Shown here piece after piece: positions 2,702 through 47,018 of a DNA stretch of 51,502 bases. A model generated the notes under the pieces. The model was not told the DNA's origin. It ran no database searches and saw only the letters and a list, made by a program, of their open reading frames with translations. A program made the translations under genes and the position numbers. The DNA lies in IMG/VR virus record IMGVR_UViG_3300042991_000788, positions 1 to 51,502 of that record, one strand, 5' to 3'. Each line of letters opens with the position of its first letter. Within the stretch, counting starts at the first letter, position 1. Source of the DNA: a virus. Lineage: Duplodnaviria; Caudoviricetes.

Positions 2702-3118
2702 TTATTTATGTGTATTTAGTAAAGGTAGGTTAGTCCTCCCTCTCTTTTTTATTGCAATAATATTCATTTGACATAAAAGGATAAGTAGGTTTTCTAAATC
2801 TTTCTTAACTATATCGAACATAGGATAATCTCTTTTAAGAAAAAAAAGAATTTCATCTAAATCTTTGGAGTCAATCATCCAACCATTTATAAGGTCAAAC
2901 AAATTTGCATATTTAACTTGTCTTACTTCTTCCTTTTCTTCAAAGTTGTGAGTATTTTTATTAGCATTAAAATCTTCAGATACCTGGTCTATAAGCTTAC
3001 AGTAACGCCAAAATATACGAACAAAAGGCGTCCATTTATAGCCATTCCAGTAAATTCGTTTTCTTATAAAAATTGGCCCACTTGCTGTTTGCCATATTCC
3101 AAATGAAATCCAGAGCAT
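2702..3118 (-). CDS. Hypothetical protein; C-terminal half paralogous to 3196..3567
   Basis: Shared F(N/D)ANKxTxxFEEKxEVxQxxYAxLxDLxxGWxIDxKxLDEILF...QMNII segment. Confidence 0.75.
   Translation of the reverse strand: MLWISFGIWQTASGPIFIRKRIYWNGYKWTPFVRIFWRYCKLIDQVSEDFNANKNTHNFEEKEEVRQVKYANLFDLINGWMIDSKDLDEILFFLKRDYPMFDIVKKDLENLLILLCQMNIIAIKKRGRTNLPLLNTHK
2706..2728. promoter_or_regulatory. 23-bp palindrome family, degenerate copy 1
   Basis: TTATGTGTA TTTAG TAAAGGTAG. Confidence 0.6.
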
Positions 3119-3171
3119 TTAATTTTTCTCCTATTATTTTACGTTTGTAAAGGTTAATTAATATAGATTAT

Positions 3172-3194
3172 CTGTGTGTATTTAGTACACATAG
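3172..3194. promoter_or_regulatory. 23-bp palindrome family, copy 2
   Basis: CTGTGTGTA TTTAG TACACATAG. Confidence 0.9.
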
Positions 3195-3195
3195 A

Positions 3196-3567
3196 TTAAT
3201 CCTTTCTTCTTTCTATCATAATAATATTCATTTGGGATAAGAGAAGAAGTAAGTCTTCAAGATCTTCTTTATCCAGGGTTAACATAGGAAAAATTCTATT
3301 AAGGGAGAAGAGAATTTCATCTAAATTTTTAGGGTCAATAGTCCAACCATCAAAAAGGTCAGTTAAACTTGCGTATCTAATTTGTTTTACTTCTTTCTTT
3401 TCTTCAAAGTCGTAAGTATCTTTATTAGCATCAAAACTTTCAGGTATTTGGTCTGTAACACAATCACAAAGGAGTGTTTCAATAGCCCAGGGTTCGTGTA
3501 TTTGCTGGTATTCTCCTGTACCTCCACAGAACTTACAGTTTGGTTTTGGTTTTAAATGATAGTTCAT
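3196..3567 (-). CDS. Hypothetical protein with N-terminal CxxCxGxG zinc ribbon
   Basis: CKFCGGTG...CDC; AGGAG RBS. Confidence 0.75.
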   Translation of the reverse strand: MNYHLKPKPNCKFCGGTGEYQQIHEPWAIETLLCDCVTDQIPESFDANKDTYDFEEKKEVKQIRYASLTDLFDGWTIDPKNLDEILFSLNRIFPMLTLDKEDLEDLLLLLSQMNIIMIERRKD

Positions 3568-3610
3568 TTTAACTCCTTTTTAGTATAAGGTATTATTTAA
3601 TCTTTAGTAT

Positions 3611-3643
3611 AAAAGCGCCATGCTTTTTTATGCTTGGCGCTCT
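3611..3643 (-). terminator. Possible intrinsic terminator
   Basis: AGCGCCA...TGGCGCT stem followed by a short T tract on the minus strand. Confidence 0.45.
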
Positions 3644-3665
3644 TGATTTAATTCTTTTTTTGAGG

Positions 3666-3929
3666 TTAATATATATACCCTTCATAAGTATCCTCAAAAA
3701 AGCGAGCAATCTTATACCCTACATTACCCAATGTCGGACCTGTTATGGTTGGACAATAGAGATATTTGACTCCGCCTATTTCGTGTTCGTGGTTTAATAA
3801 ATCCACTTCATCTATGATGACTGCACCTTTGAGAGAATCTTTACCGTATTCTTCTACGGTTTCTCTAATTGCTTTGCAGATAAAATCAAAATAATTAATT
3901 AGTTCTTCTGGGTATTCTGATTGAGACAT
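3666..3929 (-). CDS. Small acidic hypothetical protein
   Basis: 87 aa, AGGAGG RBS. Confidence 0.7.
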   Translation of the reverse strand: MSQSEYPEELINYFDFICKAIRETVEEYGKDSLKGAVIIDEVDLLNHEHEIGGVKYLYCPTITGPTLGNVGYKIARFFEDTYEGYIY

Positions 3930-3930
3930 T

Positions 3931-4254
3931 TTATTTTTCCTCCTTCTTTATGTACCCGTTTTGTACTGCCCACATATCTAATTCTTTCCAGCCAAACACA
4001 TTATCTACATCCAGGTACGTGGTAATATAATCTATGATATCATTATCACTGAATACATTACTTACTTCCATTGTTTTACCAACATAATCTCTAATGGTAT
4101 CATCATCAAATATTTGGTCCACAGTAAATGTATTCTCCACGTATTCTTTTATATCTTCTTGATGATAAACATCTCCTGGTGATACCTCATCACCAATCCA
4201 GTCTAAAATTCTTTGGTAAAACGCGTTACTAAAATCCTGTTCTAATCTGTTCAT
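3931..4254 (-). CDS. Acidic protein with ~19-aa internal repeats
   Basis: DQIFDDDTIRDYVGKTMEV / SNVFSDNDIIDYITTYLDV-type units; GGAGG RBS. Confidence 0.75.
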   Translation of the reverse strand: MNRLEQDFSNAFYQRILDWIGDEVSPGDVYHQEDIKEYVENTFTVDQIFDDDTIRDYVGKTMEVSNVFSDNDIIDYITTYLDVDNVFGWKELDMWAVQNGYIKKEEK

Positions 4255-4303
4255 TTTAAACCTCCAAAGTAAATTTAAATTACAATTAATTAAACAAACT
4301 TAG

Positions 4304-4376
4304 TACCCTCATTGAGATTCGAACTCAAAACCTATTGCTTAGAAGGCAATTGCTCTATCCATTGAGCTATAAGGGT
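4304..4376 (-). tRNA. tRNA-Arg(TCT)
   Basis: ACCCTTA/TGAGGGT acceptor, AGCTCAATGGATAGAGC D arm, ATTGC-CTTCTAA-GCAAT anticodon arm, TTCGAAT T loop; CCA not encoded. Confidence 0.9.
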
Positions 4377-4384
4377 AACCTTGA

Positions 4385-4558
4385 TTATTTTTTAGCTTTC
4401 CAAGATAATAATTCTCTTTTAATTATCTCAATAGACCAGTTTCTTGAAGCAAAGATGTATTTATTAAGGATACCGTTGATTGTGATTATACCTTTAGTCC
4501 TGCTAAAGCCTAAGGAAGAACTAAAAGTTATTAAATCTTCCATTTCTTGTTGTGTCAT
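4385..4558 (-). CDS. Small hypothetical protein (57 aa)
   Basis: Below ORF-track cutoff; MTQQEMEDLITF..., AGGAG RBS. Confidence 0.45.
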   Translation of the reverse strand: MTQQEMEDLITFSSSLGFSRTKGIITINGILNKYIFASRNWSIEIIKRELLSWKAKK

Positions 4559-4832
4559 TGTTTTCTCTCCTTAGAAAATTTAAAGTTTGTATGTATATTT
4601 CTGGAGAACTAAAGTCAGTTTGATAAAGGTATAATGTTCCTTTACCTGTTTTTAAGGTTATAGTATTGTTTTCAGTCCTATATGCTACCAGATAAGTTTC
4701 ATCTGAGGAAAAAAACTGATGGATTAGATTAGCTGAGATTACTATTGTTATGACTGAAATGATAATTAAAAAGAAAAAGATTAAAACATGTAGTCCTTTA
4801 GGGTATTTGTTTATTTTAATGTAAGCTTCCAT
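4521..4832 (-). CDS. Single-pass membrane protein
   Basis: Hydrophobic LHVLIFFFLIIISVITIVISANLI; AGGAGG RBS. Confidence 0.7.
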   Translation of the reverse strand: MEAYIKINKYPKGLHVLIFFFLIIISVITIVISANLIHQFFSSDETYLVAYRTENNTITLKTGKGTLYLYQTDFSSPEIYIQTLNFLRRENNDTTRNGRFNNF

Positions 4833-4858
4833 GTTATACCTCCTAGGAAAGGAAGATT

Positions 4859-5158
4859 CTACTCAGGATTAGTAGATAAGGTAGCTGGAATTTGTTTTAA
4901 TGCTGCATTACATTTTTGCACAGCAATTTTTTCTATTGTTGTCTGAATTACCCGTAAAAATGAAATTAATTCAGCAGAAGGCTCAAATTTATTTGAATCC
5001 ATTTGCCAGGATTCATTTGAAAGTCTGAACTCAGCAATTTTAATATTCCCTGAGAGGAGAGAAAGGGTAGCTGCGATAGTAACCAACCCAAGTGAGTTAA
5101 ATGAGACGTAAATGGAAAAAAGTTCAGCTTGGTTAATGTTGATATCTATATTGTCCAT
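4859..5158 (-). CDS. Hypothetical protein
   Basis: 99 aa, AGGAG RBS. Confidence 0.7.
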   Translation of the reverse strand: MDNIDININQAELFSIYVSFNSLGLVTIAATLSLLSGNIKIAEFRLSNESWQMDSNKFEPSAELISFLRVIQTTIEKIAVQKCNAALKQIPATLSTNPE

Positions 5159-5199
5159 GTTTTTACTCCTTTGTTCTTGTTAAGAAAAATTATTAAAGA

Positions 5200-5264
5200 T
5201 GAAGCAGGGGAAGCACAAATCCCCTTTGGATTTAACTATTAGTTATTTAATATCCCCTGCTTCA
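5200..5264. other. Structured intergenic element (12-bp closing stem, two inner hairpins)
   Basis: TGAAGCAGGGGA...TCCCCTGCTTCA enclosing AAATCC/GGATTT and TAACT/AGTTA. Confidence 0.55.
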
Positions 5265-5297
5265 AGGTATTATTCTTTTACTTGTATTGAATTGAGG

Positions 5298-5696
5298 TTA
5301 CTTTTTTAAAGTAATCCATTTGCTAACATCATGGCTTACCAGACCAGTTTCCTTGTTTTCTTTCTGTACTACCATTCCCCAACCAGTTAAACCTCGCCAT
5401 TCGGGGGGATTACCTGGGTCACTTGGAGTTAAACCAAAAGCTTCCAGAAAGTGCTTAAGGTTTAATTTCATAAAGTATTTAGTGTTGGGCGCATCAGTGT
5501 CCAGGGGAAGGGATAAATTCAAATATACTGGCTGCGCTCCAGGCATTTCGTTAATGTCACAAGTAACCTTCAGAATTTCTCTGGAAGAAGATTTACTTGG
5601 TACAATTTGTGCTCCTGTGATTTTTAATTCATACTCTCCAGGTTGTACCAGGGAAGGTTCTAACACTTCATCTAAATGCAAGTCTAATAAAGACAT
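5298..5696 (-). CDS. DUF669-like single-stranded DNA-binding protein
   Basis: PGEYELKITGA...LKHFLEAFG pattern; follows the AAA_24 ATPase as in Sak4 modules. Confidence 0.7.
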   Translation of the reverse strand: MSLLDLHLDEVLEPSLVQPGEYELKITGAQIVPSKSSSREILKVTCDINEMPGAQPVYLNLSLPLDTDAPNTKYFMKLNLKHFLEAFGLTPSDPGNPPEWRGLTGWGMVVQKENKETGLVSHDVSKWITLKK

Positions 5697-5727
5697 TTAA
5701 TACTCCTTTTGTTAATGTTAGTGGTAT

Positions 5728-5750
5728 CTATGTGTATTTAGTACACACAG
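5728..5750. promoter_or_regulatory. 23-bp palindrome family, copy 3
   Basis: CTATGTGTA TTTAG TACACACAG. Confidence 0.9.
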
Positions 5751-5757
5751 ATGATTG

Positions 5758-6570
5758 TTATTTTTTTACTTCTAAAACTAAAGGGGGTTTATTTTTACTT
5801 TCCAACTGGGCTTTTTCCAGTAATGATTTAATGTTAGGCTCCTCCTTTTGATTTAAGTTTTGGAGTTGTGTACTGGCTGTATACCTACCAGCACTTGATG
5901 TTAGTAATTCGTATTTAACACCTGTTGGTACTCTACTTGTTACACAATGATATTTTTCGCTGAAGAGTTTAGGGATTTTACTTTTTAATCTGTTGTAAGT
6001 ATCAAGTTCTGTAACAATTTCTTCTGTGATTTCGTCTTTTACAGTTACTGTATGAGCAATGTAGATAAAATCACAACCTTGACTACAAGAAATCTTTATG
6101 GTGTCGACTACTGTGTTATAGATTGGAGTGTAATCTTGTATTGCAAGATTTTCTACTCTCTTTTTTTGTGCCATGATGTAATTAGACATTGCTTCAAGCC
6201 AGGTTGTTCCACTATCTATGACATAGGTACCAAAGAAATTAAGAAATCCGGTTTTACAATCTTTTTCCCATTGGTCTGCCCATTTTTTGTATTCTGTAGG
6301 CTTTTTTGAATCTTCTTTTGTGTAGAGTCTTACGAAAAGATTACCCTCTGCCATCATTTGTTTATACTTAGGGTTACTGTGCATTAGGATATAACCCTTT
6401 GTGTCGAACATATCTATTAGGATAGGCGTTCGACCTGTGAGAGCAGTTGAAGTTTTTCCACTACCTGCAAGTCCCATAAGTAGGAATGCTGGTGCTACAT
6501 AAGCTCCGATGAGAGTGGAGTAAGTAGCTTGAATGTCTGAGGCGGTTTTAATAGCTTCTAATCTATCCAT
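5758..6570 (-). CDS. AAA_24 / Sak4-like ATPase (recombinase)
   Basis: Walker A GLAGSGKT, Walker B YVIDS, QDY and IYIAH motifs. Confidence 0.8.
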   Translation of the reverse strand: MDRLEAIKTASDIQATYSTLIGAYVAPAFLLMGLAGSGKTSTALTGRTPILIDMFDTKGYILMHSNPKYKQMMAEGNLFVRLYTKEDSKKPTEYKKWADQWEKDCKTGFLNFFGTYVIDSGTTWLEAMSNYIMAQKKRVENLAIQDYTPIYNTVVDTIKISCSQGCDFIYIAHTVTVKDEITEEIVTELDTYNRLKSKIPKLFSEKYHCVTSRVPTGVKYELLTSSAGRYTASTQLQNLNQKEEPNIKSLLEKAQLESKNKPPLVLEVKK

Positions 6571-6586
6571 TGTTGCTCCTTGCCCT

Positions 6587-7510
6587 TTATGGTGTTTTTA
6601 ATGTTTTAATTACAGGCTGCTTAGTAGGATCCCAGAGTTCTATTATATATCCTTGTGGGACATAGTCTTTTTTTGCTAATGGATTAGGGCGATATATGCA
6701 AAGGTCGTGAAATTCGCATAACCTGTTGTACTGAATGCAGCTTTCTGTATTCTTTCTGAAACATTTCAGATAAGGTTGGTCTAGAGTTGATTTTTCTAAC
6801 TCCTCAAAGTCGTTGTCTATTTGAAGGTAAAGAGCATTAATATCATCTAACCAGGCAAGCATGTCTAAACCTGACTTAGGGATGGATACTCTACGATGCT
6901 CAATTTCTTCCCCCTTTTTCTTTTTAAAGATAGTTCCATCTATAATGACTCCTCCGACTTTATCTGGAGAGTAAAAAGAGTATAGAGTATGAGTGTATGC
7001 AGAAATTTGAAGCTTCTGTAGCCATTGGTCATCCCAATATGACCATAATGCCTTGCTGGTTTTCGTCTCTAAGACGTATATCAAACCATTTTTTTCAATC
7101 AAAGCATCAAGACGACCGTAGAGTAGTTTGTCTTCGTTGATTAAACAAGTGAAACCAATTTCTGTTTCCATGAGGGTTAACTTGTCGTTGGCATACTCAA
7201 GGACGTATTTATAAAGGGCGAGTTCTACTTTTTGTGGTGATTTAGGATCGTAAAACTCATCTGTTTCTATACCATAGTATGGGCGGTATGCTTCAAGAAA
7301 AGCAGTATAAGCTGCTTCAATACCCTGTTGGGAGTAGCCTTTTTGAAGAAGAACTTCCTTTGCTTTGTGAAAAGCTGCTCCAAAGATTAAATCATGTGAG
7401 AGTTCTTTTTGTTTGTAGCCTAAGACGTATTTAAAGAGGTATTGTCTTGGGCATTTTAAATAGGCCTGAAGCTTACTCGAGTCCTGCTTCTTTTGAATTG
7501 TTAGTTCCAT
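6587..7510 (-). CDS. PD-(D/E)xK (RecB/Cas4-like) exonuclease
   Basis: DSSKLQAYLKCPR, FGAAFH, GRLDAL...LETKT, Q...Y, C-terminal Cys cluster. Confidence 0.85.
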   Translation of the reverse strand: MELTIQKKQDSSKLQAYLKCPRQYLFKYVLGYKQKELSHDLIFGAAFHKAKEVLLQKGYSQQGIEAAYTAFLEAYRPYYGIETDEFYDPKSPQKVELALYKYVLEYANDKLTLMETEIGFTCLINEDKLLYGRLDALIEKNGLIYVLETKTSKALWSYWDDQWLQKLQISAYTHTLYSFYSPDKVGGVIIDGTIFKKKKGEEIEHRRVSIPKSGLDMLAWLDDINALYLQIDNDFEELEKSTLDQPYLKCFRKNTESCIQYNRLCEFHDLCIYRPNPLAKKDYVPQGYIIELWDPTKQPVIKTLKTP

Positions 7511-7835
7511 TGTTGTTGTCTCCTAAGTCTGAGGGTAAAAAGTGCTTTAGAGTAAGATTGTATTTGATGTATCTGTCTTTGATATAAAGAAGGACGTTTA
7601 AATCCTGTTTTAATGTTCCAAGTAACCAACCTATGATAAGGTTAGTACTGGCTAAACCTGTGAGAAGAATGTAATCTCCTTTTTTGAAAGTGCTTAATCC
7701 TTTCCAAATTAATCTGGTTTGTAGATTAAGATTGTCCGCATCTATTAGGCCTTCAGTAAGGAAAACTAAGGTGCCGTATTTTTCTGCTTCAGAAAAGTCA
7801 TGAGCACTTTTGTTTACGATGTAGACTTTAGGCAT
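7473..7835 (-). CDS. Hypothetical protein
   Basis: 120 aa, AGGAG RBS. Confidence 0.75.
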   Translation of the reverse strand: MPKVYIVNKSAHDFSEAEKYGTLVFLTEGLIDADNLNLQTRLIWKGLSTFKKGDYILLTGLASTNLIIGWLLGTLKQDLNVLLYIKDRYIKYNLTLKHFLPSDLGDNNNGTNNSKEAGLE

Positions 7836-7837
7836 TT

Positions 7838-8029
7838 TTACTCCTTTTTAAAGGGTTCTGGGTTCATTCCAAATTGAAGCGCATATTTGTTTAATGCTTG
7901 AAGAACGACTTCTTCAATACAGATTACCTCTGGACTGTTTAGACCAGTTGGTCTAAGAAGGATGTAAGAACCGTTGTAAGAAGCATAAACACCATTGGCT
8001 AAATGAGCTTGTTGGTTTTGTTCTGACAT
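7838..8029 (-). CDS. Small hypothetical protein
   Basis: 63 aa, AAGGA RBS. Confidence 0.65.
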   Translation of the reverse strand: MSEQNQQAHLANGVYASYNGSYILLRPTGLNSPEVICIEEVVLQALNKYALQFGMNPEPFKKE

Positions 8030-8031
8030 GG

Positions 8032-8199
8032 TTATTCCTTTTCTTCTACTGGAATAATGTTAAAGGATGTGATTTTTTTACACAGTCCCCAGGTTTTGTT
8101 GATGTAAACTAACATTTCGGCTGGGGTTAGAGGATTACATTTTTGTACCCCATCAGATTTAGGTTTAAGGGCGGTTTCTTTGATTTGGTAAATGGCCAT
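8032..8199 (-). CDS. Small hypothetical protein (55 aa)
   Basis: Below ORF-track cutoff; MAIYQIKETALKPK..., AAGGAG RBS. Confidence 0.5.
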   Translation of the reverse strand: MAIYQIKETALKPKSDGVQKCNPLTPAEMLVYINKTWGLCKKITSFNIIPVEEKE

Positions 8200-8270
8200 T
8201 TTAAAGCTCCTTTGTTGTTTGTTGTTTGTTGTTTGTTGTTTGTATGTTGCCTTATTGCTTGTAGGAAAAA

Positions 8271-8341
8271 TGGGCAGTCAGACAGGATTCGAACCTGTAG
8301 GGGTTAAAGTTTTAGTGTCTACCAATTCCACCACTGACTGC
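8271..8341 (-). ncRNA. tRNA-like RNA with collapsed anticodon arm
   Basis: GCAGTCAG/CTGACTGC stem plus CCA, Leu-type D arm GTGGAATTGGTAGACAC, perfect T arm ACAGG-TTCGAAT-CCTGT, only ~16 nt between D and T arms. Confidence 0.7.
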
Positions 8342-8355
8342 TTGTTACTTGGTAT

Positions 8356-8378
8356 CTATGTGTATTTAGTACACATAG
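8356..8378. promoter_or_regulatory. 23-bp palindrome family, copy 4
   Basis: CTATGTGTA TTTAG TACACATAG. Confidence 0.9.
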
Positions 8379-8386
8379 ATTGTTTT

Positions 8387-8818
8387 TTACTCTTGCTGCA
8401 TTCGAGCAAGCAATTCTTGCATTGCTTTGATTTGTGCGGCACGCTGGGGAACGGAAAGTTTACTCAATTTGGTTTCCAATTTTTCTTCCTCACTCTTTCG
8501 AGTTCCACCGAGAGTGGGTTTCCAGTTGTGAGTATTGCTATCTACGTCGAATAAAAGTTCTTGAATTTCTTCCTCGTCCTTACCTGCAGCTAACCAGCTC
8601 CGCATCTTTCCTTGAAGGGTGAATAAAATGTGACCAATGACCATCTGGGTAACTACTTCCTCGGAAAAGATTGCTACCATCTCATCGATGGAATCGCCGA
8701 AGTTGTATTCGATAGTACAACTTTCACCTTTGTCGTTTAGGTAGGTATGTTTACCTTCTTTGTCATTGAGTTTTAATTTTGCGATTGCATCTACTGTTAA
8801 AGTTGCTGATACTTGCAT
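8387..8818 (-). CDS. Hypothetical protein
   Basis: 143 aa, AGGAGG RBS, flanked by two palindrome copies. Confidence 0.8.
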   Translation of the reverse strand: MQVSATLTVDAIAKLKLNDKEGKHTYLNDKGESCTIEYNFGDSIDEMVAIFSEEVVTQMVIGHILFTLQGKMRSWLAAGKDEEEIQELLFDVDSNTHNWKPTLGGTRKSEEEKLETKLSKLSVPQRAAQIKAMQELLARMQQE

Positions 8819-8845
8819 GTTGTGCCTCCTTGATTTGATAAGTGT

Positions 8846-8868
8846 CTATGTGTATTTAGTACACATAG
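8846..8868. promoter_or_regulatory. 23-bp palindrome family, copy 5
   Basis: CTATGTGTA TTTAG TACACATAG. Confidence 0.9.
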
Positions 8869-8953
8869 GTGATTAATAATGTTGTAGTGCTTGTTTTTCG
8901 TCTTGCGTTTATTTTTTATTACTTGTTGCTTGTTGCTTGTTGCTTACCTTTAT

Positions 8954-9400
8954 TTATTGTTGCCTACCTCCCATTCTTTGAAGTACTTTTAGCATCATTT
9001 CTGCCTGTTCTCTTGTGAGTTGTTTTTTCTTCTTGTTCGGGGTACGTGATTTGTTCCCCGCTTTATCCTTTACTTCTTGCCTACAAAATATTTTATCCCA
9101 GTTTAATTTACTCTTAGGGATGTAATTAGGATGTACTACGAACATGTTTTTATTCTGCCAATCTTGCTTTTCCTTAAGGATTTTCCAGGGGAGTGGATTT
9201 GGCAAAGGTAATTCATTCTGCTTTGCTTCACAAACTTCAAGGATGGTGCAATCTTGAATTGTGAAGTGTTTAGTTGTGAATTTTTCATATGTTTTAGTAC
9301 TTGCTACACTGTCATTTTCTGCGATGAGAATGTAAGTTGTTTTTACGACTTCTTTTGTCTTGTTGTTTCTGATGATTAGGGAGAAGGTATATTTTTTCAT
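8954..9400 (-). CDS. Basic hypothetical protein
   Basis: Start moved to ATG 9400 (MKKYTF, AAGGA upstream) because the longer ORF runs through a tRNA-like element. Confidence 0.65.
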   Translation of the reverse strand: MKKYTFSLIIRNNKTKEVVKTTYILIAENDSVASTKTYEKFTTKHFTIQDCTILEVCEAKQNELPLPNPLPWKILKEKQDWQNKNMFVVHPNYIPKSKLNWDKIFCRQEVKDKAGNKSRTPNKKKKQLTREQAEMMLKVLQRMGGRQQ

Positions 9401-9476
9401 ACTTTTTCCTTGTGTGTCTAATTCAGGTTTGTGTTGTTGATTGGGTTTGTGTTGTTGTCGGTGAAACAAAAGCTTT

Positions 9477-9549
9477 GCCTGTCTGACTGGATTTGAACCA
9501 GTATTTGCGGCTTGCCAACGCAAGTTTTTCTTATTAAACTACAGACGGG
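9477..9549 (-). pseudogene. Degenerate tRNA (possible GCA anticodon)
   Basis: CCGTCTG/CAGACAG acceptor with one mismatch, GTTT/AAAC D stem without GG, TGCG/CGCA anticodon stem, ACTGG-TTCAAAT-CCAGT T arm. Confidence 0.55.
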
Positions 9550-9574
9550 TTAGTTGACCTGCTGGTCGGGAAAG

Positions 9575-10063
9575 TCAACTGTGGAGTTCTTTTTCTTTAA
9601 AGGATTTTAGTTCTTCAACTAACATTAATTTTCGGGTAAGGAGGACTTTAAATTTCTCTTTGATGTCAATATAACCTTTTAAGTAAAGGGTTTTTGCTGG
9701 GATAAGGGCTTTGTAAAGTTTTAATTCCCAAAGACTTTCATCAGTAAAAGAGTCTTTGTCGGCATATAAACAAGGCCTTACATAGTCTACATAATCCTCT
9801 ACTTCTTTTATACTTGGGAAGGTGTGAAAGAATCCTGTGGTTATTTTGTATAGAACGAATTTGTTTCTTTTAATGTCTTGTATCATGCGAGTTATAAGAG
9901 TTAAATCTGTTTCAAGACTTTTTAATTTATTGACTTCCCAAGTGTATTGAATTTGATATAAAGAAGTTAGGGTATTTGCTTCCGGATTTTTCCACCTTAA
10001 AACGTATACAAAGGCATCATTCTTCATGGTAGTGTATTTTTTACTTATTAGAATTGTACACAT
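9575..10063 (-). CDS. Hypothetical protein (paralog of 10098..10604)
   Basis: Shared MCTxLxSKK, VYVLR, GxFHTF, KAxIPxKxxYLxG. Confidence 0.8.
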   Translation of the reverse strand: MCTILISKKYTTMKNDAFVYVLRWKNPEANTLTSLYQIQYTWEVNKLKSLETDLTLITRMIQDIKRNKFVLYKITTGFFHTFPSIKEVEDYVDYVRPCLYADKDSFTDESLWELKLYKALIPAKTLYLKGYIDIKEKFKVLLTRKLMLVEELKSFKEKELHS

Positions 10064-10097
10064 TGTTTGTTTTTTCCTTGTTTGTTTGTTTGTTTGT

Positions 10098-10604
10098 TTA
10101 AAGTTTATCGTTTAAAACTTCAATCAGTTTTAATTTTTCAGTTACTACCGCAGGACAATGAACTTTGGTTTTCTTAATAATGTTTTCTCTGGAATCGGTA
10201 AATTCAAATGTTATTTCAACAGTTCCGTGTAAGTATCGGGATTTTGGTGGAATTATCGCCTTACAAATAACATAATCACAAGGGACGTAAAAAGTTTCTT
10301 GGAGTAAGTTTAAATCAATTTGGTTAGCCTTGATGTACTTCTTAACCGATTGAAATGTTGTGAAGGTGTGAAAACACCCTTCGCCGATAACCCAACCAAT
10401 ATCTTCTTGTAAAGGAGAATTTTTCATTCTTAACCCTTCAGAGAAAGTTTCGTCTTTAAAAGATTCTTTTTGTTCTTTGTTTAGTTTCCAGTAAGTAGAG
10501 TGATATATACTGCGTAACCCGTCTTGAGTGTTAAAGCGCAGTACGTATACTACTCTTTCCTTACGGGTGGTGAGTATTTTTTTTGATTTCAGCATAGTGC
10601 ACAT
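10098..10604 (-). CDS. Hypothetical protein (paralog of 9575..10063)
   Basis: Same shared motifs. Confidence 0.8.
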   Translation of the reverse strand: MCTMLKSKKILTTRKERVVYVLRFNTQDGLRSIYHSTYWKLNKEQKESFKDETFSEGLRMKNSPLQEDIGWVIGEGCFHTFTTFQSVKKYIKANQIDLNLLQETFYVPCDYVICKAIIPPKSRYLHGTVEITFEFTDSRENIIKKTKVHCPAVVTEKLKLIEVLNDKL

Positions 10605-10658
10605 TTTGATTGACCTTTCTGGTTCGTTTGATTGATTGATTGATTGATTGATTAAGAT

Positions 10659-10937
10659 TTATTCCAAACCTTCACTTGCTTCAATTACTAAGTCTTGATA
10701 AGCATCATTGATGCGCAAGTCTTCAATCCAAACCTCAGCGGCTCCAGCTCCAGTTAAGTCTACCGAAATAATACAGAGTTGTAAAGCAACAATTTCTAAT
10801 TCTTCAGAACTCATTTCACATTCGTAATAAGGGTGAATTTCCATTTTACCCGAAAAATGACGAATGCAGATTAAAACATCAGCTTCAAGGGATAAGTTCT
10901 TAATCCCGCGTTGAATTATCTTTGAAAAGTTTTCCAT
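10659..10937 (-). CDS. Acidic hypothetical protein, first gene after the early promoter
   Basis: Start moved to ATG 10937 (MENFSK, AAGGA RBS); the track start at 11066 is the promoter -35 TTG. Confidence 0.65.
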   Translation of the reverse strand: MENFSKIIQRGIKNLSLEADVLICIRHFSGKMEIHPYYECEMSSEELEIVALQLCIISVDLTGAGAAEVWIEDLRINDAYQDLVIEASEGLE

Positions 10938-11037
10938 ATTGTTCCTTTGTGTTTGTTTGTGTTTGTTTGTGATTGGTTGGGTTCGTTCGAATTCATCCCG
11001 ATTCATCCCAATGAAAAATAAATTAATTTGATGCTCA

Positions 11038-11066
11038 AATATACTAATTATTTTAATCAATGTCAA
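11038..11066 (-). promoter_or_regulatory. Sigma70-type early promoter
   Basis: TTGACA-17 nt-TATATT with upstream A tract. Confidence 0.85.
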
Positions 11067-11223
11067 GTTTTTTTTTAATTTATTTTATGTGGAATAAAAA
11101 TATTTTCGACCAAAAAAAAGCATCAAAAACTGTGCCACAAATTTACATCCTTCCTCTTTACCTTATCTTTACCTCACCCTTACGTTTTTACGTTCATTCT
11201 CATACCTGTCTTTACCTTCTTCT

Positions 11224-11267
11224 TATATACTAATCGTATATACTACCCGTATATACTACCCGTATAT
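11224..11267. repeat. 13-bp tandem repeat CGTATATACTACC (~3 copies)
   Basis: tatatactaatcgtatatactacccgtatatactacccgtatat. Confidence 0.75.
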
Positions 11268-11293
11268 CATTCCCATTCTGAGGATAAAACTAC

Positions 11294-11316
11294 CTATGTG
11301 TACTAAATACACACAG
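11294..11316. promoter_or_regulatory. 23-bp palindrome family, copy 6 (extended arms)
   Basis: CTATGTGTA CTAAA TACACACAG inside GATAAAACTAC...GTAGTTTATC. Confidence 0.9.
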
Positions 11317-11389
11317 GTAGTTTATCATTATTCTTGTTCGTGGATATCATATTACTATCACCCCATCACCCAGCACCCCACACCACCCC

Positions 11390-12088
11390 CTAAAGTTTTT
11401 CCTCTAATACTTTCATCCCTTCATCATCAAACCAGATTTTTTCTTGCTTACTAAGACCATCATAACCCGCAAATTCAGGATTTCTTGCCCAGCTTCTTAC
11501 TTTTTTCTCCATTCGTTCAAGTTCTATTCCTTTATAATCAATTAAAGGTTCATTCAACGCATCAGGTTCACCCTTCATTCCTTCATTCCCTATAGTGGAT
11601 TGATACAATTCATCCGCCCTTGCCTGAATCATAGCAGGACTTACCCCTGCTAATGCCCTTACCCCTTCCTCTCTCCCAGGCAACTGGGCAAGAATGGAGA
11701 AATCAGTTCCTATTCCTGTTTCCCCTTCTCCAGACAATTCTAATTTCTCATATTCCCTCGTAATGTTCTTCGCAGTTGACCTATCCCCTTGAGAAATACT
11801 ACCTGCTGACATTAATCCCTTTGCGACCAGATACTGTTGGGCGAATATAATTCCACCTTCCCTTAAATTCCTATCAATCACATCATATTCCCCCTCTGCT
11901 TTATCTACCAAACTTTCCATAACTGCACGAATAGCGGCAGATGTTGATTGGACAGTAATACCAAATTTTCTTTCTACAAGATTAATAAACCTCGCCAGAT
12001 ACACAATATTAACTCTTGCGCCTATACTTAAGGTTTTTATTCGTGTTCCGTAGATGGTTTGTTGGGTGGATTTGTTGTTTTTACTCAT
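11390..12088 (-). CDS. Hypothetical protein, possible N-terminal ribbon-helix-helix
   Basis: KTLSIGARVNIVYLARFINLVERKFG...STSAAIRAVMESLV strand-helix-helix pattern; function uncertain. Confidence 0.65.
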   Translation of the reverse strand: MSKNNKSTQQTIYGTRIKTLSIGARVNIVYLARFINLVERKFGITVQSTSAAIRAVMESLVDKAEGEYDVIDRNLREGGIIFAQQYLVAKGLMSAGSISQGDRSTAKNITREYEKLELSGEGETGIGTDFSILAQLPGREEGVRALAGVSPAMIQARADELYQSTIGNEGMKGEPDALNEPLIDYKGIELERMEKKVRSWARNPEFAGYDGLSKQEKIWFDDEGMKVLEEKL

Positions 12089-12101
12089 GCTGAAATTCCT
12101 T

Positions 12102-12170: not shown

Positions 12171-12181
12171 GGTGGTGTTTG

Positions 12182-15265: not shown

Positions 15266-15314
15266 GTCGTTGTAGCGAGGAGTATAATCATTTTGTTTTT
15301 TGGGGACTGTATGT

Positions 15315-37684: not shown

Positions 37685-37707
37685 CTATGTTTACTAAATA
37701 CACACAG
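37685..37707. promoter_or_regulatory. 23-bp palindrome family, copy 15
   Basis: CTATGTTTA CTAAA TACACACAG. Confidence 0.9.
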
Positions 37708-37722: not shown

Positions 37723-37745
37723 CTGTGTTTACTAAATACACACAG
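37723..37745. promoter_or_regulatory. 23-bp palindrome family, copy 16
   Basis: CTGTGTTTA CTAAA TACACACAG. Confidence 0.9.
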
Positions 37746-42955: not shown

Positions 42956-42978
42956 CTGTGTGTATTTAGTACACATAG
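42956..42978. promoter_or_regulatory. 23-bp palindrome family, copy 17
   Basis: CTGTGTGTA TTTAG TACACATAG. Confidence 0.9.
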
Positions 42979-43003: not shown

Positions 43004-43303
43004 ATGTTAGTAAGAATGTTTGGTAAGGTAATTTCTCTTGTAATGCCCTGGGAAATTATTTTAGGTTATGTTATTCAATTAGCTTCTAGTTTGCTGAAAG
43101 AATGGCTGAAGACTATGACTTACACTAAGAAAGGGAAGTACTTTACTATGACAGTTTATGTCTTATGTGAAGCTCTTGGTGAAGAATTAGTTGCTGATAC
43201 TCGAACAAATGTTGATGATACTCTGTTACAGGGGGTCATTAATCTTTGTGAGGAAATGGCTGAACGGGGAGAATTTAAACTTCCAGTAGTACCAGAGGTA
43301 TAA
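43004..43303 (+). CDS. Small amphipathic protein, last late gene (possible lysis role)
   Basis: AGGAGG RBS; hydrophobic N-terminus; LVADTRTNVDD. Confidence 0.6.
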   Translation: MLVRMFGKVISLVMPWEIILGYVIQLASSLLKEWLKTMTYTKKGKYFTMTVYVLCEALGEELVADTRTNVDDTLLQGVINLCEEMAERGEFKLPVVPEV

Positions 43304-43306: not shown

Positions 43307-43340
43307 TAAAAGGGTAGTCTGTAATAGGCTACCCTTTTTT
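43307..43340. terminator. Bidirectional intrinsic terminator between convergent operons
   Basis: AAAAGGGTAGTCT-GTAAT-AGGCTACCCTTTTTT. Confidence 0.88.
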
Positions 43341-43341: not shown

Positions 43342-44559
43342 TTACTCCTTACCTGTATATTTGATGTAAAAATAAGGTTTCCCTTCTCGTTCAATTCTAT
43401 ATGTTTGTACATATTTTGAATATTCGAGACTGCTTATGATAGCAGATAGATCTCGTGGCATTACATCATAACTGAATTGAGCGGATAGGTCACTATATAC
43501 AACCTCTTGATGTGACCTGATGTAATTAAGTATTTTAGCAGTGAGACTTGCAAAAGAACTCTGACCAATCCCTTCAAAGGTTTTGGCCATCTTTATTTCT
43601 GTTATTTGTAAAAGTCTGATAGCCCTATCAAAATCTATATCACGTAATACTAACTCATTACTTCTTGATAGGCTATAAAGCATAGCTACTTTGTGTAAGT
43701 GAGTTGGTCTTCGTTCCATATAACCTGTCATTTTTTCTGATTTAGCTACAGGACTTCTTTCACAGCCCACATCCACTCCATACTCTGCCCAGGAAGGATA
43801 CCAGGCTCCCCACCTGTTTAGGTATGATTGATCTTTTCGAAATTCACCAGATAGGACGTGTATCATACTCAGGTCTTTTATTAATTTTTCTTTTAACTCT
43901 TCATTTTTGGTATTAGAGAATGGAAAGACTACTATTTTCCTATCACCTTTCTCTGCAAAAACATAGATGAAACGTGAGTTTAGACCTGACCCAAAACTTA
44001 GTGTAGGTAAAGCTTCTTGTAATAAGTCTGGAGTTGTTGCACCGAGTAAGTTTACCCACAGTTTTTTAATAGTATCCTTACCCTGAGTTTTAGTATCATA
44101 CTCCCAGAACTGATCACAGTCATACCAGTCTGCAAGGTTTGACATAAAGTCAAGGTTTTTGTAGCCAAGAAAAACTGTTAACTCTTTTGAGAATATGGTA
44201 AGAGAAGCATTTGCTTGTATTCTTCCATCTGATACAGTAAAGTTTTCTCCTGCTTTCTTCAAAGCTCTGATAAGTGCTTCTTGTGTAGTTTTATTTGCTG
44301 CAATATGTAAACCAAGATCTCTGAGGATAGGTTCTGCTGGTCCCATAGCAGTTCCTTTACGCCCTCCAGGGAGGGCAACAAATGCAAGGAAGAGGTTGCA
44401 AAAAACATCCTTCTCCCATTTTAAGAAGACTTTTCTTTCAACAGCACTGGCTATCATAAAGAGAGAAGTCCAATGATTGAACAATTTTGGAGTCTCCTGA
44501 TGCTCCATGTATTCCACCCAGGACTTACTCCAATCTTCAAGTCCTCTGATTAACTCCAT
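43342..44559 (-). CDS. DUF3987/YfjI-like P-loop ATPase (probable replicative helicase)
   Basis: FVALPGGRKGTA, LADWYDC, NLLGATTP, GLNSRFIYV. Confidence 0.75.
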   Translation of the reverse strand: MELIRGLEDWSKSWVEYMEHQETPKLFNHWTSLFMIASAVERKVFLKWEKDVFCNLFLAFVALPGGRKGTAMGPAEPILRDLGLHIAANKTTQEALIRALKKAGENFTVSDGRIQANASLTIFSKELTVFLGYKNLDFMSNLADWYDCDQFWEYDTKTQGKDTIKKLWVNLLGATTPDLLQEALPTLSFGSGLNSRFIYVFAEKGDRKIVVFPFSNTKNEELKEKLIKDLSMIHVLSGEFRKDQSYLNRWGAWYPSWAEYGVDVGCERSPVAKSEKMTGYMERRPTHLHKVAMLYSLSRSNELVLRDIDFDRAIRLLQITEIKMAKTFEGIGQSSFASLTAKILNYIRSHQEVVYSDLSAQFSYDVMPRDLSAIISSLEYSKYVQTYRIEREGKPYFYIKYTGKE

Positions 44560-46978
44560 TATACTCTCCTGTAAAGAACTCTTGCAATTGTTCCTTTAAT
44601 TGACTATCAGAAATGAATTTTAATTTCTTCATTCTACCGAGGTTTGTTCCTACTGTTAATTCAAACGGGATAGAAAATTCTTTAAACTTCCATGTTATAG
44701 GTTGCTCTATGTTGTTTTTTATTTGAGAGATAAGACTTATATGTTTATCTATTCCTAAGGATAGGGGAAGTTCAAAGTCTATACTATCATGTACTTGCCG
44801 AAGTAAGATTACATCCTTGTAGGTAGAGTCATAATATAAAGGAATCAAACCTCGTCTGTTAATACAGTCACTAGTGTTTGATTGTGCAGGGAAAGCATAG
44901 GCTTTGTTAAATAAAGCAGGTCCCCAAGCATCTTTAAAAAGATATTTTCTACCAAAAGGGTTGGTTAAGATACGGGATTTTCTTAATTCTGTTTGAACCC
45001 ATTTATGATATTTGTTAATAACTCCAGGGTAAGTGTAATGATATTTGTCATAGATTAATTTACCCTGACTTTCAGGGATTTCTAAATTGAAAGAAAATAG
45101 TTTATAACCCATACCGAAGTTTAAAGAGTGATTAGCTTTTTTACCCCAATACCTATGGGTCTGGTCACCATAACCGAGACTACACTTTACTTTTTCTTTA
45201 TCCATCTGAGTTATCTCAATTGCAGGAATGTTGAAAATAAAACTTGCTGTTAGACTATGTACGTCTATACCTTCTTCAAAAGCTAAAATCATTCTTTCTT
45301 CTGGTGCAAGGTAAGCTACGGCTCTATTATCAGCTTGACTTAAATCTCCTGAGTAAAGGAGATAACCATCATCAGGGATGAAAATAGTATTCATTTCTTT
45401 AGGGATATTCTGGTGATTAGTACCGAAGCCAAATATATCCTCAGAAGAGGATAAGCGACCCATTGCTGTTATGGGATTGTAACTACAAACTAAACGATTA
45501 TTTTTGAGTTGAACAGCTAGATAATTAGACAATAGCTTTCTGTTATGCCTGATGTTTAGAATGATCCTTGCTTCTAAGTAACCTCTTCTAGCTATACGGG
45601 ATAAAGCAGATTCATCTGTAGTAACTGAGGCTGCACCTCTTTTTTTATAAGGAGCAATACCAAGTTTATCATAGAAATAAGCTGCTACTTGTTTACTACT
45701 GTTTACATTTAATTCAAAACCTACCTTTTTATTTAATTCTTCTTGAAGAGCAGAGTTTGTTTCCTCGGTTCTGGTACGAATCTTATCCATTTCAGTAACA
45801 TCTACTTTAATTCCATTAGTAGACATAAAAATACAAGGGTCAATTAAAGACAAGTGCATGTCGTAAGTTTCTTTGTTATTTAATCTTTCTAAGTCAGACA
45901 AAAGACCAGGTAAAACTTCAAGACAAACAAGAGAATCTTTTGCATTATACTTACCAAAGTCTTCTTCATTACCTCCAATTTTCCAGTACTCTTTTCCAAT
46001 ATCTTTGTAATACTGATGACGTGTTCTTGTACTTGTGATGAAACCTAAGTCTGCTTTATAATCAGGAAGGACTAACTTATGAGCTATTAAAGTATCCTCT
46101 TTGTTCTGCATAACAAAGCCAAATTTTTGGAACAAAAAGCCACAGTCAAAGACTAAATTTTGACCTACTTTTTTAATAGCAGGATCTTCTAAGATATTAC
46201 CTATGAGTTTCCAGATAACTAACTCTTGAGGAGGTGAGAAGTAATTGCTATTGTTTAAGTAAAAAGGTATTGACATACAGTTGTGTAAATCATAAACTAA
46301 AGCGATACGAGATATCTCTCGTCGACTAACTTCAATATCTATAGCTACTAAGTATTGTTTTTCTTGGATCTCTATGAGAGAAGAAATAACTTCTGAATAA
46401 GAAGGGAAGACATTGTAATTTACCTGAGGAAGAATTAATTCCTGAGTTCCCATCTCTTCTTTAGCCTTGATTAAATCAAGTAAGATCAAATGCCTGTATA
46501 AATAATTGTGGAGTGTAGCTATGGGATGAATAGAAGGGATAACTTTTTTCTTTAATTCATCCTGCCAATAGATACTTCCTCGGTATCTGGTGATTCCTGT
46601 TTTGTTTAGTAAAGCACACATAGCAAGATCACCTAGAGTGAAAATAACATTAGCTTTGATTTGTTTCAGTTCTTCTAATAACTCTTGTATGTGTGATTTA
46701 CCTGCTGATAGGATACCTTTTTTTTCTGAATAGACTTCTTCTTTATCTATAAGAAAGATAGTGTCTAAGCCACGTTTACTCTTTGTTATTTTATATTTAA
46801 GGGCATAGGTGAAGTAAATATTGTCCTTTGGAATCCTGGCATTTAATAACAAGTTTAAAAGTAACTCTCCTGAAGAGCCAGCAAAAGGCTGGCCCTGTTG
46901 AATTTCGATATCTCCAGGAGTATCTCCTAGGATTATTAAAGGAGAATCTTGGCTACCTATAGATGGAACTTGTATCAT
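44537..46978 (-). CDS. polA: Family A DNA polymerase with N-terminal uracil-DNA-glycosylase-like domain and 3'-5' exonuclease
   Basis: GDTPGDIE...PFAGSSG...HP; IDIE, QNLVFD, YNAKD; GRLSSS, DLSQAD, RYWGKKANHSLNFG, QVHDS. Confidence 0.92.
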   Translation of the reverse strand: MIQVPSIGSQDSPLIILGDTPGDIEIQQGQPFAGSSGELLLNLLLNARIPKDNIYFTYALKYKITKSKRGLDTIFLIDKEEVYSEKKGILSAGKSHIQELLEELKQIKANVIFTLGDLAMCALLNKTGITRYRGSIYWQDELKKKVIPSIHPIATLHNYLYRHLILLDLIKAKEEMGTQELILPQVNYNVFPSYSEVISSLIEIQEKQYLVAIDIEVSRREISRIALVYDLHNCMSIPFYLNNSNYFSPPQELVIWKLIGNILEDPAIKKVGQNLVFDCGFLFQKFGFVMQNKEDTLIAHKLVLPDYKADLGFITSTRTRHQYYKDIGKEYWKIGGNEEDFGKYNAKDSLVCLEVLPGLLSDLERLNNKETYDMHLSLIDPCIFMSTNGIKVDVTEMDKIRTRTEETNSALQEELNKKVGFELNVNSSKQVAAYFYDKLGIAPYKKRGAASVTTDESALSRIARRGYLEARIILNIRHNRKLLSNYLAVQLKNNRLVCSYNPITAMGRLSSSEDIFGFGTNHQNIPKEMNTIFIPDDGYLLYSGDLSQADNRAVAYLAPEERMILAFEEGIDVHSLTASFIFNIPAIEITQMDKEKVKCSLGYGDQTHRYWGKKANHSLNFGMGYKLFSFNLEIPESQGKLIYDKYHYTYPGVINKYHKWVQTELRKSRILTNPFGRKYLFKDAWGPALFNKAYAFPAQSNTSDCINRRGLIPLYYDSTYKDVILLRQVHDSIDFELPLSLGIDKHISLISQIKNNIEQPITWKFKEFSIPFELTVGTNLGRMKKLKFISDSQLKEQLQEFFTGEYNGVNQRT

Positions 46979-46995
46979 CTTTCCTCCTTTTATAT

Positions 46996-47018
46996 CTGTG
47001 TTTACTTAGTAAACATAG
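46996..47018. promoter_or_regulatory. 23-bp palindrome family, copy 18 (overlaps stop of ParB-MTase gene)
   Basis: CTGTGTTTA CTTAG TAAACATAG. Confidence 0.88.

Follow-up and report, generated by a model that had tools for sequence, protein, structure and literature searches.

A dispersed 23-bp quasi-palindrome in the genome of an uncultured phage and a ParB-methyltransferase fusion as its candidate reader

The complete 51,502-base record of an uncultured virus of the Caudoviricetes (IMG/VR record IMGVR_UViG_3300042991_000788; CheckV completeness 100%), analysed here over its full length and called the window, carries a family of 23-bp quasi-palindromes that is spread over the genome in the short gaps between genes. 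That these sites are a family of protein-binding sites is well supported by sequence comparison within the window and with its relatives. We consider it an open bet, with a probability of about 0.5, that they are docking or loading sites, comparable to parS or to the operators of KorB, for a protein encoded by the same genome in which a ParB-like domain with a helix-turn-helix (HTH) is fused to a DNA methyltransferase, hereafter the ParB-methylase (Table 1).

The pattern CTRTGTDTAYTWARTAHACAYAG (in IUPAC notation) is matched exactly at 16 places in the window and at none in 100 dinucleotide-preserving shuffles. Allowing one mismatch gives 17 sites, the extra one being at 16650, and the 17-mer core with at most two mismatches is found at exactly 18 places, where 0.89 would be expected and the largest number in any shuffle was 4. 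Twelve sites differ from the symmetric ideal by three mismatches or fewer; reversed, the pattern has no match in the window at up to one mismatch. An earlier note on this DNA had counted eighteen copies. All 18 places are recovered, although the copies are unequal, 16 being exact and two degenerate, i.e., the one at 16650 and the one at 2706, which has two mismatches in the 17-mer core and, by reading of the output, three in the 23-mer. The same note saw no copies in the outer flanks, and the scan with the 17-mer core likewise finds none in 1-2705 or 47019-51502; as the window is a complete virus record, these flanks are phage genes and not host DNA.

The copies had been described as spread over the window, mostly between a stop codon and the next ribosome-binding site, and all 16 exact sites do lie in gaps free of open reading frames (ORFs), which by our crude ORF calls make up 8.9% of the genome. 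A typical site is found 1-8 nt past a stop codon and 7-31 nt ahead of the next start. There are two tandem pairs, 18994/19032 and 37685/37723, each with a spacing of 38 bp and with spacers that are unrelated. The description of the sites as lying in both orientations independently of the direction of transcription also holds: read on the sense strand, the centre is ACTAAAT in 10 sites, ATTTAGT in five and symmetric in three. One of the ATTTAGT sites, at 12984, is in a divergent region without a defined direction, and among the 14 assignable sites the centre follows transcription in 10 and is inverted in four, three further sites being symmetric. Where the centre is asymmetric (15 of 18 sites), one half ends in TAC and the other in TAT.

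The constraint on the sites appears to act on DNA and not on RNA. For the pairing test the 18 copies were turned to the sense strand, aligned, and scored for a 13-pair stem with a 3-nt loop against 500 shuffles. Paired cells amount to 77.4% compared with 80.2 ± 1.1 in the shuffles, with all 500 of these at or above the observed value. The covariation score, 0.105, compares with 0.141 in the shuffles (491 of 500 at least as high), and a double change occurs in two pairs only. The arms mismatch slightly more than a chance combination of the same columns would, as illustrated by the pair of positions 3 and 21, for which a manual count gives A-T three times, G-C three times, G-T five times and A-C five times. 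The mismatches between the arms are uncompensated, as the earlier note had it, and the covariation check speaks for a DNA site. Nor is one strand favoured, since Watson-Crick pairs number 154 on each, G-U pairs 18 in sense and 27 in antisense, and mismatches 49 and 40, respectively, while the mean fold energy is -7.9 kcal/mol in sense and -8.4 kcal/mol in antisense (Wilcoxon p 0.58). In the mRNA sense the fold energy of three late sites is just -1.7 to -3.1 kcal/mol. A terminator scan flagged only one of the 18 sites for a terminator-like tail (8354-8380), and next to the site at 32078 there is a distinct G+C-rich stem, the hairpin at 32055-32082. Since pairing, strand bias and orientation show no RNA constraint, the conserved property is the sequence of the half-site on duplex DNA.

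Placed right past stop codons, with right arms that in three cases overlap a Shine-Dalgarno-like AGGT 7-8 nt before an ATG, and with some copies folding well, to -16 kcal/mol, the sites might nevertheless be taken for hairpins in polycistronic mRNA, serving as 3' stabilisers, processing sites or translational operators over the ribosome-binding site. Such hairpins would not be expected to pair below the level of shuffles, to lack any advantage of the sense strand in wobble pairs or fold energy, or to occur in both orientations within one transcription unit, and a search of the window with Rfam returned two tRNAs only. The absence of compensatory changes and of a strand bias, and the single terminator-like copy, likewise set the sites apart from intrinsic terminators and stem-loops. 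The RNA-level reading is largely refuted by the covariation, strand-comparison, fold-energy and Rfam results and we regard it as extremely improbable. The proposal of a double-stranded DNA site for a dimeric protein gains support from the pairing, strand and terminator results, from the conservation described below and from the presence in the genome of a gene for a predicted dimer-forming ParB/Noc-like HTH protein.

Conservation of the motif in relatives, on which the earlier note had staked its reading, is found at two levels, the same junctions and the same build. The length is constant at 23 bp and so is the build: a hexamer on the outside, then three bases specific to the lineage, a centre of 5 bp, and the mirror image of the first two. 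Scans for the exact pattern outside the window gave one other viral contig, 18 metagenome stretches and five single matches in 596 Gb of prokaryote genomes. A site for a host factor was set aside, as the five prokaryote matches are near chance (about 2-3 per 600 Gb by a hand estimate), and 16 of the 18 metagenome stretches were also taken as chance. The other two stretches are relatives of the window: L012 has 83% nucleotide identity to 32073-33196 and carries a site at the same post-capsid junction, differing only at degenerate positions of the pattern, and L018 has 71% identity to 13809-14116 and carries two sites. More distant relatives, many of which are fragments, have their own versions. 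In G002/L005 (large terminase about 35-40% identical) there are two sites with an ATA/TAT core, one of them directly past the large-terminase stop and 9 nt ahead of the next start, as in the window. The window motif is absent from G003, whose large terminase is 58% identical and which has seven exact TGTTCA-N5-TGAACA cores within CTWTGT...ACAWAG. G001, at 67% identity in the large terminase, has a TGTTCAA-WWW-TTGAACA set that is weaker. Desulfofustis phage LS06-2018-MD01 (OP947158.1; MD01 below) has the same gene order as the window with proteins 25-39% identical, and carries nine copies of GCTATGT-CCC-AANTT-GGG-ACATAGC, which has the frame CTATGT...ACATAG in common with the window and in which arm mismatches are likewise uncompensated. 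In the matched passages of the paper on this phage (PMC10370329) the stem 'palindrom' is used only for CRISPR and 'ParB' is absent; as the stem is used there only in that sense, the repeats of MD01 appear to be undescribed in these passages. Megablast found no match to 24 kb of the window in 50,697 phage records, and a search for relatives via the DNA polymerase gave no locus.

Orthologous junctions are occupied by the palindrome of the respective lineage. This applies to the junction between the AAA_24 ATPase gene and the next gene in the window, G001, G003 and MD01, to the post-terminase junction in the window, G002/L005, G003 and G001, and to the post-capsid junction in the window, L012, G001 and G003. 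A copy is also located upstream of the small-terminase gene in both the window and MD01. This last copy, together with gaps that hold little beyond the site and with the extended flanks that the copies at 2706 and 3172 have in common, as duplicated cassettes would, could point to selfish or neutral mobile palindromes of the repetitive extragenic palindrome (REP) or miniature inverted-repeat transposable element (MITE) kind, or to repeated pac-like sites read by the small terminase. On the other hand, orthologous junctions remain occupied across genomes as distant as about 35% protein identity, one half-site is common to all copies within each genome, and matches in prokaryote genomes stay near chance. 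Protein family scans covered 48 ORFs with Pfam and ten further ORFs with PHROGs only, a few ORFs falling outside both, and among the scanned ORFs there is no transposase, neither of the HUH/Y1 type that accompanies REP elements as RAYT (REP-associated tyrosine transposase) nor of any other. We consider mobile or pac-like sites to be very improbable.

A conserved 23-bp element that precedes genes and changes between lineages could also be a phage-specific promoter, possibly an N4-like hairpin on the template strand, or a pause or termination signal for a dedicated polymerase or sigma-like factor. The window, G001 and G003 agree in the order past the capsid gene (terminator-like hairpin, site, 12-13 nt, start codon), in 10 of the 14 oriented asymmetric sites the template strand carries the better hairpin, with a T-G closing pair and a 3-nt loop, and the 1733-aa protein of the virion module is without a family match. 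However, the scans found no RNA polymerase or sigma factor, and the orientation of the sites, which in N4-type hairpin promoters would be fixed relative to the transcribed genes, agrees with gene direction in only 10 of 14 sites; the post-capsid site is inverted in the window, L012 and G003. Conserved flanking promoter elements were not seen in the aligned copies, and sigma-70-type promoter matches were at or below shuffle expectation in three scans (52 compared with 60.2, 50 with 65.1 and 52 with 56.0). The only match to sigma region 4 is the HTH of the protein encoded at 15300-15806, which is taken to be the small terminase because its homolog directly precedes the large terminase in G003. 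As small terminase this protein was also set aside as a reader of the sites, without a formal test in that role. A promoter or pause signal is quite improbable in our opinion.

Several features of the ParB-methylase make it a candidate for the protein that reads the sites. Thirteen window proteins have a tblastn match in MD01, and the ParB-methylase carries the sole recognisable sequence-specific DNA-binding domain among them. Its domain architecture is PF02195 + PF01555, with 38.4 bits for PF02195 compared with a cut-off of 26.3, and chains of Noc and ParB align with its residues 8-157 (E 5e-14 to 1e-9). Box II reads GSRR (GGRR in 28 of 30 homologs), box III reads ENxxR, and G65, R67, R68, E101, N102 and R105 are invariant in the 30 homologs. 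The AlphaFold model (mean predicted local distance difference test score, pLDDT, 86.9) places the HTH helices at residues 143-150 and 154-169. For the N-terminal half the Foldseek matches are ParB, KorB (8qa9) and Noc, in one case a Noc chain in complex with the site it binds, and for the C-terminal half they are CcrM, M.BceJIV and N4CMT. A homodimer is predicted with an interaction prediction score from aligned errors (ipSAE) of 0.58, the best control being 0.00. This mark is attained by 20 of 30 proteins whose solved structures are pairs and by one of 23 whose structures are single chains. Contacts agree between runs to at least 59%, the partner pLDDT is 76, and the interface consists of residues 300-367 in the methylase domain. 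The model may owe this pass to the likeness of that domain to solved beta-class methylase dimers. In the methyltransferase the S-adenosylmethionine motif I (FxGxG), here FAGSG, is kept, and motif IV reads DIDY (residues 243-246) instead of DPPY, outside (D/N/S)PP(Y/F/W). DIDY is found in 9 of 30 aligned homologs, comprising all those at least 42% identical to the window protein, and DPPY in 19 of 30, which are more distant. Judged by this motif the methyltransferase may be altered or inactive in the DIDY subfamily. The family comprises 182 proteins at E <= 1e-20, many of them on contigs of 43-51 kb, and a profile search gave 380 viral stretches.

Fusion protein and dispersed palindromes go together beyond the window. 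A profile of 30 homologs gave 80 viral loci, of which 30 encode the full-length fusion and 50 match in the methylase domain only. With a strict finder (an exact 6+6 palindrome with a gap of 0-11, not of low complexity, repeated at least three times) a palindrome is present in 11 of the 30 full-length loci and in one of the 50 methylase-only loci (Fisher p 4.7e-5). That single locus, L086, has four copies of TTGACG-N4-CGTCAA and is possibly an unrelated case. The output of a first k-mer neighbourhood script was dominated by A/T-rich words of low complexity. Families of at least three copies derived by script are present in 21 genomes at a density of 0.18-0.38 sites per kb, with half-sites such as CTATGGTAAA, CTTTGTTCAG, CTGTATGCAT, GATCGTTTAA and CTATGTCCCA, and in the 20 genomes other than the window 66 of 102 sites are within gaps that on average make up 7.8% of the sequence. 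As far as sequence comparison can tell, this co-occurrence makes the palindromes a trait of the clade and does not by itself establish the identity of the reader.

If the ParB-methylase reads the sites, residues of its HTH should change with the half-site. Covariation was scored on 18 genomes (one subclade collapsed) over 358 protein columns, 39 of them in the HTH region. Half-site position 4 is best associated with residue 138 (z 7.0), position 6 with residue 154 (z 4.65), which opens the recognition helix and is Thr in the window protein, and position 8 with residue 153 (z 4.5), all three in the HTH region. When residue 154 is His or Arg, position 6 is G in six of six genomes, and with other residues in none of 15 (21 genomes). 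Residue and base are both different between L049 (His, ...TGG) and L068 (Pro, ...TGT), which are supported sisters, and on an IQ-TREE tree the residue-154 and position-6 traits each change six times. The position of Bacillus Spo0J aligned to residue 154 is an arginine that we take to be needed for parS binding. The covariation between HTH residues and half-site is suggestive, not significant.

A number of observations weigh against the ParB-methylase as reader, the first being that all the evidence on the reader is correlative. The relatedness of the genomes was not corrected for in the covariation set; the best columns for the other six variable half-site positions are outside the HTH, only 6 of the 45 top-5 columns are within it, and column 360, in the methylase domain, is nearly as good for position 6 (z 4.6). 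With all 21 genomes the top columns are outside the HTH, one subclade being the driver, and residue 138 ranks 2nd and residue 154 4th of 354. Independent pairs on supported branches are concordant in three of three cases (p 0.25), which cannot reach significance as there are only three such pairs, and the tree itself includes the HTH columns. With regard to co-occurrence, a lenient finder (at least three copies) reported palindromes in 19 of 30 full-length loci, yet also in 15 of 50 controls, mostly low-complexity runs rich in A/T or G/C. As this finder is unspecific, family calls with few copies are uncertain, and its use was confined to ParB-methylase loci and, there, to families with three or more copies. 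No family of two or more was obtained in five of 32 genomes or loci, and since the full-length loci were found via the protein and probably belong to one phage clade, the co-occurrence may reflect co-inheritance. Gordonia phage Phishy, with a distant ParB-domain protein, has no dispersed palindrome, and in G003 and G002, which carry sites, no ParB-methylase gene was seen on the incomplete contigs. (Aphanizomenon phage Yong-DA, a ParA/ParB replicon full of polysaccharide genes, was set aside as not comparable.) The systematic C/T asymmetry of the centre in 15 of 18 sites is unexplained by a simple symmetric dimer, and a mechanism that depends on methylation is weakened here because motif IV reads DIDY. 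Finally, as most early proteins are without annotation, an unrecognised DNA-binding protein could be the reader.

The last point leads to an alternative that we regard as unlikely, in which the sites are operators or roadblocks for a different, small dimeric regulator from the unannotated early region, modulating operons in the way of stoperators or of the conserved inverted repeats (CIR) of phage phiC31. The DNA-level evidence given above applies to it equally, the early ORFs are mostly without a family match and could hide an HTH or a ribbon-helix-helix, the sites stand directly before many genes, and those of the early block are nearer to the consensus than those of the late block, as graded operators would be. 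Against such a regulator it can be said that the frame CTATGT...ACATAG is common to the window and MD01 and yet tblastn finds no match in MD01 for any small early protein, that no integrase or repressor was recognised in the scans, and that several sites are 7-8 nt from the start codon, too close for activating that gene. The sites are moreover palindromic and not oriented with transcription, unlike stoperators as described in the relevant passages of PMC4351075.

Taken together, the odds that this ParB-methylase is the reader are, on sequence evidence, about even. In the docking mechanism that we favour, one HTH of a homodimer would read each half-site CTRTGTGTAY, the subunits being joined through their methyltransferase domains, which would replace the C-terminal dimerisation domain of ParB. 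Docking points would be provided every 2.5-7 kb in the only sequence free of coding constraint, the sites being intergenic because a strict 23-bp sequence is hard to write into codons, and docking would put the fusion protein on the phage's own DNA genome-wide. The ParB fold, which is predicted to bind a nucleoside triphosphate (NTP), may then let the docked protein close and spread. The earlier note had favoured a genome-wide loading, organising or roadblock site over a promoter operator, and the tests reported here point the same way; which effect docking would have we can only infer, but it might be self-directed methylation or protection of phage DNA, a protective coat, or KorB-like long-range control of transcription. 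Methylation may not be the function in this phage since motif IV is DIDY in the whole subfamily. It is possible to go further, although we think this unlikely, and to see the palindromes as phage-private 'parS' sites that load an NTP-gated ParB-type clamp carrying its own methyltransferase, which is recruited to and spreads on phage DNA and not on the larger host chromosome. Loading sites spaced 3-5 kb apart would in that case cover the genome, and site and recognition helix would co-evolve, each lineage keeping a private address. On this view the change to DIDY in the subfamily of the window protein would mean that the clamp was retained and its enzyme put to another use, for instance as a non-methylating DNA coat, a shield or a regulator.

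Should the proposed docking of the ParB-methylase prove true, the ParB/parS principle would no longer be confined to segregation and plasmid regulation and would include the self-marking of viral DNA throughout the genome, and the sites would offer a sequence signature by which members of the clade and their specificity groups can be recognised in metagenomes. Should it prove false, the sites remain a conserved and well-defined genome-wide family of operators that needs a reader.

Table 1. Copies of the 23-bp quasi-palindrome in the window and the gene of the candidate reader; (+) and (-) give the strand of neighbouring ORFs.
Feature	Coordinates	Strand	Match to pattern	Setting
Site	2706-2728		degenerate	overlaps final codons of ORF 2702-3118(-); start of ORF 2407-2661(-) 44 nt downstream
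Site	3172-3194		exact	1 nt past stop of ORF 3196-3567(-); 53 nt ahead of start of ORF 2702-3118(-)
Site	5728-5750		exact	between AAA_24 ATPase gene (5758-6570, -) and ORF 5298-5696(-)
Site	8356-8378		exact	8 nt past stop of ORF 8387-8818(-); sole copy flagged by terminator scan
Site	8846-8868		exact	27 nt ahead of start of ORF 8387-8818(-)
Site	11294-11316		exact	in gap flanked by ORFs 10659-11066(-) and 11390-12088(-); centre inverted compared with neighbours
Site	12984-13006		exact	divergent non-coding control region 12884-13257
Site	15154-15176		exact, symmetric centre	123 nt upstream of small-terminase gene (15300-15806, +)
Site	16650-16672		1 mismatch	within first codons of 789-aa tail-spike ORF (16621-18990)
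Site	18994-19016		exact	3 nt past tail-spike stop; first of tandem pair
Site	19032-19054		exact	8 nt ahead of start of 704-aa tail-fibre ORF; second of tandem pair
Site	21590-21612		exact	between ORFs 21189-21584 and 21625-21909
Site	25309-25331		exact	1 nt past large-terminase stop; 7 nt ahead of next start
Site	32078-32100		exact	past major-capsid gene and terminator-like hairpin (32055-32082); 13 nt ahead of next start
Site	37685-37707		exact	6 nt past stop of ORF 36200-37678; first of second tandem pair
Site	37723-37745		exact	7 nt ahead of start of 1733-aa ORF; second of second tandem pair
Site	42956-42978		exact	1 nt past stop of 1733-aa ORF; 25 nt ahead of ORF 43004-43303
Site	46996-47018		exact, symmetric centre	overlaps stop of ParB-methylase ORF; 17 nt ahead of DNA polymerase start
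Candidate reader (ParB-methylase)	47002-48339	-		445 aa; ParB/Noc/KorB-like NTPase fold, HTH and beta-class N6/N4 methyltransferase domain

The genes of the window form three blocks of ORFs, on the minus strand in 1-12883, on the plus strand in 13258-43303 and again on the minus strand in 43342-51502. Recognised genes encode two tail-spike/tail-fibre proteins, the large terminase (23742-25307), the portal, the major capsid protein (30705-32042), a primase, a PD-(D/E)XK nuclease, the AAA_24 ATPase and an RNase T-like exonuclease; most of the small and early ORFs have no family match in the scans. No integrase or repressor was matched in any scan, in which many ORFs had no match at all, and ParA/MinD has no match among the 48 Pfam-scanned ORFs, AAA_24 being the only P-loop match. 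Small and large terminase are about 8 kb apart (15300-25307), with tail-spike, tail-fibre, depolymerase-like and glycosyltransferase genes between them; they are adjacent in G003. The DNA polymerase, of family A (44537-46978, minus strand), has an N-terminal domain of the uracil-DNA-glycosylase superfamily (residues 6-159) that is followed by 3'-5' exonuclease and polymerase domains. Early-block genes for tRNA-Arg(TCT) (4303-4376, minus strand) and tRNA-Cys(GCA) (9477-9548, minus strand) were found concordantly by ARAGORN and Rfam. Two strong bidirectional terminator-like hairpins, at 14845-14874 and 43308-43338, have 13-14 pairs with A/T runs to either side and stand where transcription blocks end; the site at 15154 is downstream of the first of them.

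Other repeats are found besides the dispersed motif. Tandem units of about 27 bp in 28-240, in or beside the open-ended ORF 2-589 (minus strand), each contain a second, unrelated palindrome (AATGCTAGAATTTTCTAGCATT and variants), and this array could be a set of iterons, an origin or a coding repeat. A third palindrome, ATAACGGTTATCATAACCGTTAT, at 12592-12620 and 12838-12862, flanks an 86-aa ORF (12623-12883, minus strand) by the divergent control region; the pair is distinct from the dispersed motif and looks like a classical local operator pair. Three direct GTATATACTA-like units with 13 nt spacing are located at 11224-11258, about 40 nt from the site at 11294. Near both ends of the record there are paralogous ORF pairs of equal length, 1420-1947/50220-50747 and 621-1379/49418-50179, the former of 175 aa each with the same weak Pfam match at the same residues. 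Together they form a diverged direct repeat that brackets the genome, and they may represent diverged terminal repeats or an assembly effect.

Among known systems, plasmid RK2 provides a parallel, as about a dozen short palindromic OB operators, the sites of KorB, are dispersed over the replicon. Common to KorB/OB and the window are dispersed palindromes and a ParB-family HTH protein, and the role of KorB needs no ParA. KorB uses cytidine triphosphate (CTP) for long-range regulation (PMC12704722). Unlike KorB, the window protein has a beta-class methyltransferase in place of the C-terminal dimerisation domain, its proposed site is 23 bp long, and the genome is that of a lytic-looking phage; no KorA-like partner or relation to promoters is known for the window system, and NTP binding and sliding are predicted only. 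A similar comparison can be made with parS/ParB and with the Noc-binding sites (NBS) of Noc, where palindromic sites are read by a dimeric ParB-fold HTH protein whose box II and III residues are those invariant in the homologs. The window site is longer than these, with a 5-bp AT-rich centre, and 16-18 sites are spread genome-wide instead of being clustered near the origin; the methyltransferase is fused to the window protein, and no ParA is found among the scanned ORFs.

A comparable distribution among phages is that of Cluster O mycobacteriophages, in which a 17-bp dyad repeat (Corndog TGTTCGGNNNCCGAACA, 34 copies) of 7+3+7 build is not oriented with transcription and is absent from the host (PMC4351075). 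More than 30 copies are located over the genome, many of them intergenic, their function is unknown, and the authors predicted a dimeric DNA-binding protein; the phages also encode a protein with a ParB-like domain, gp90 (PMC4351075). The cores TGTTCA-N5-TGAACA of G003 and G001 resemble the Corndog repeat. These are unrelated siphoviruses of Mycobacterium, however, about a third of the Corndog sites are within genes, and no reader is linked to the repeats in the passages of PMC4351075 that treat them, so far as these go. No Mycobacterium phage is among the 39 tblastn matches of the first 200 residues of the window protein. Such dispersed dyad repeats have been unexplained since 2015, to judge from the same passages (PMC4351075). 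Stoperators of Cluster A phages, bound by the repressor (L5 gp71), are present in tens of copies in short intergenic gaps and act on elongation and not on initiation (PMC9283540, PMC4351075). The window sites are like them by distribution only, as stoperators are asymmetric 13-bp sequences read by a monomer and oriented with transcription, and their phages are temperate, having both an integrase and an immunity repressor.

In the openly accessible main texts searched (subscription journals and supplements lay outside the search) no literature was found that links ParB-methylase fusions to dispersed palindromes. Fusions of a ParB-CTPase fold to an N6_N4 methyltransferase are frequent in phages and prophages, and anti-defence roles have been suggested for them (PMC12704722). 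The window protein has the same PF02195 + PF01555 architecture. In the passages of PMC12704722 that describe them, these fusions rank among the commonest phage ParB-fold architectures, are without known function or DNA partner, and are given neither cognate DNA sites nor an HTH. The window and its relatives unite the fusion protein and dispersed palindromes in one widespread clade of uncultured phages, and it is conceivable that the palindromes would supply the DNA partner that is missing for the ParB-methyltransferase fusions of phages.

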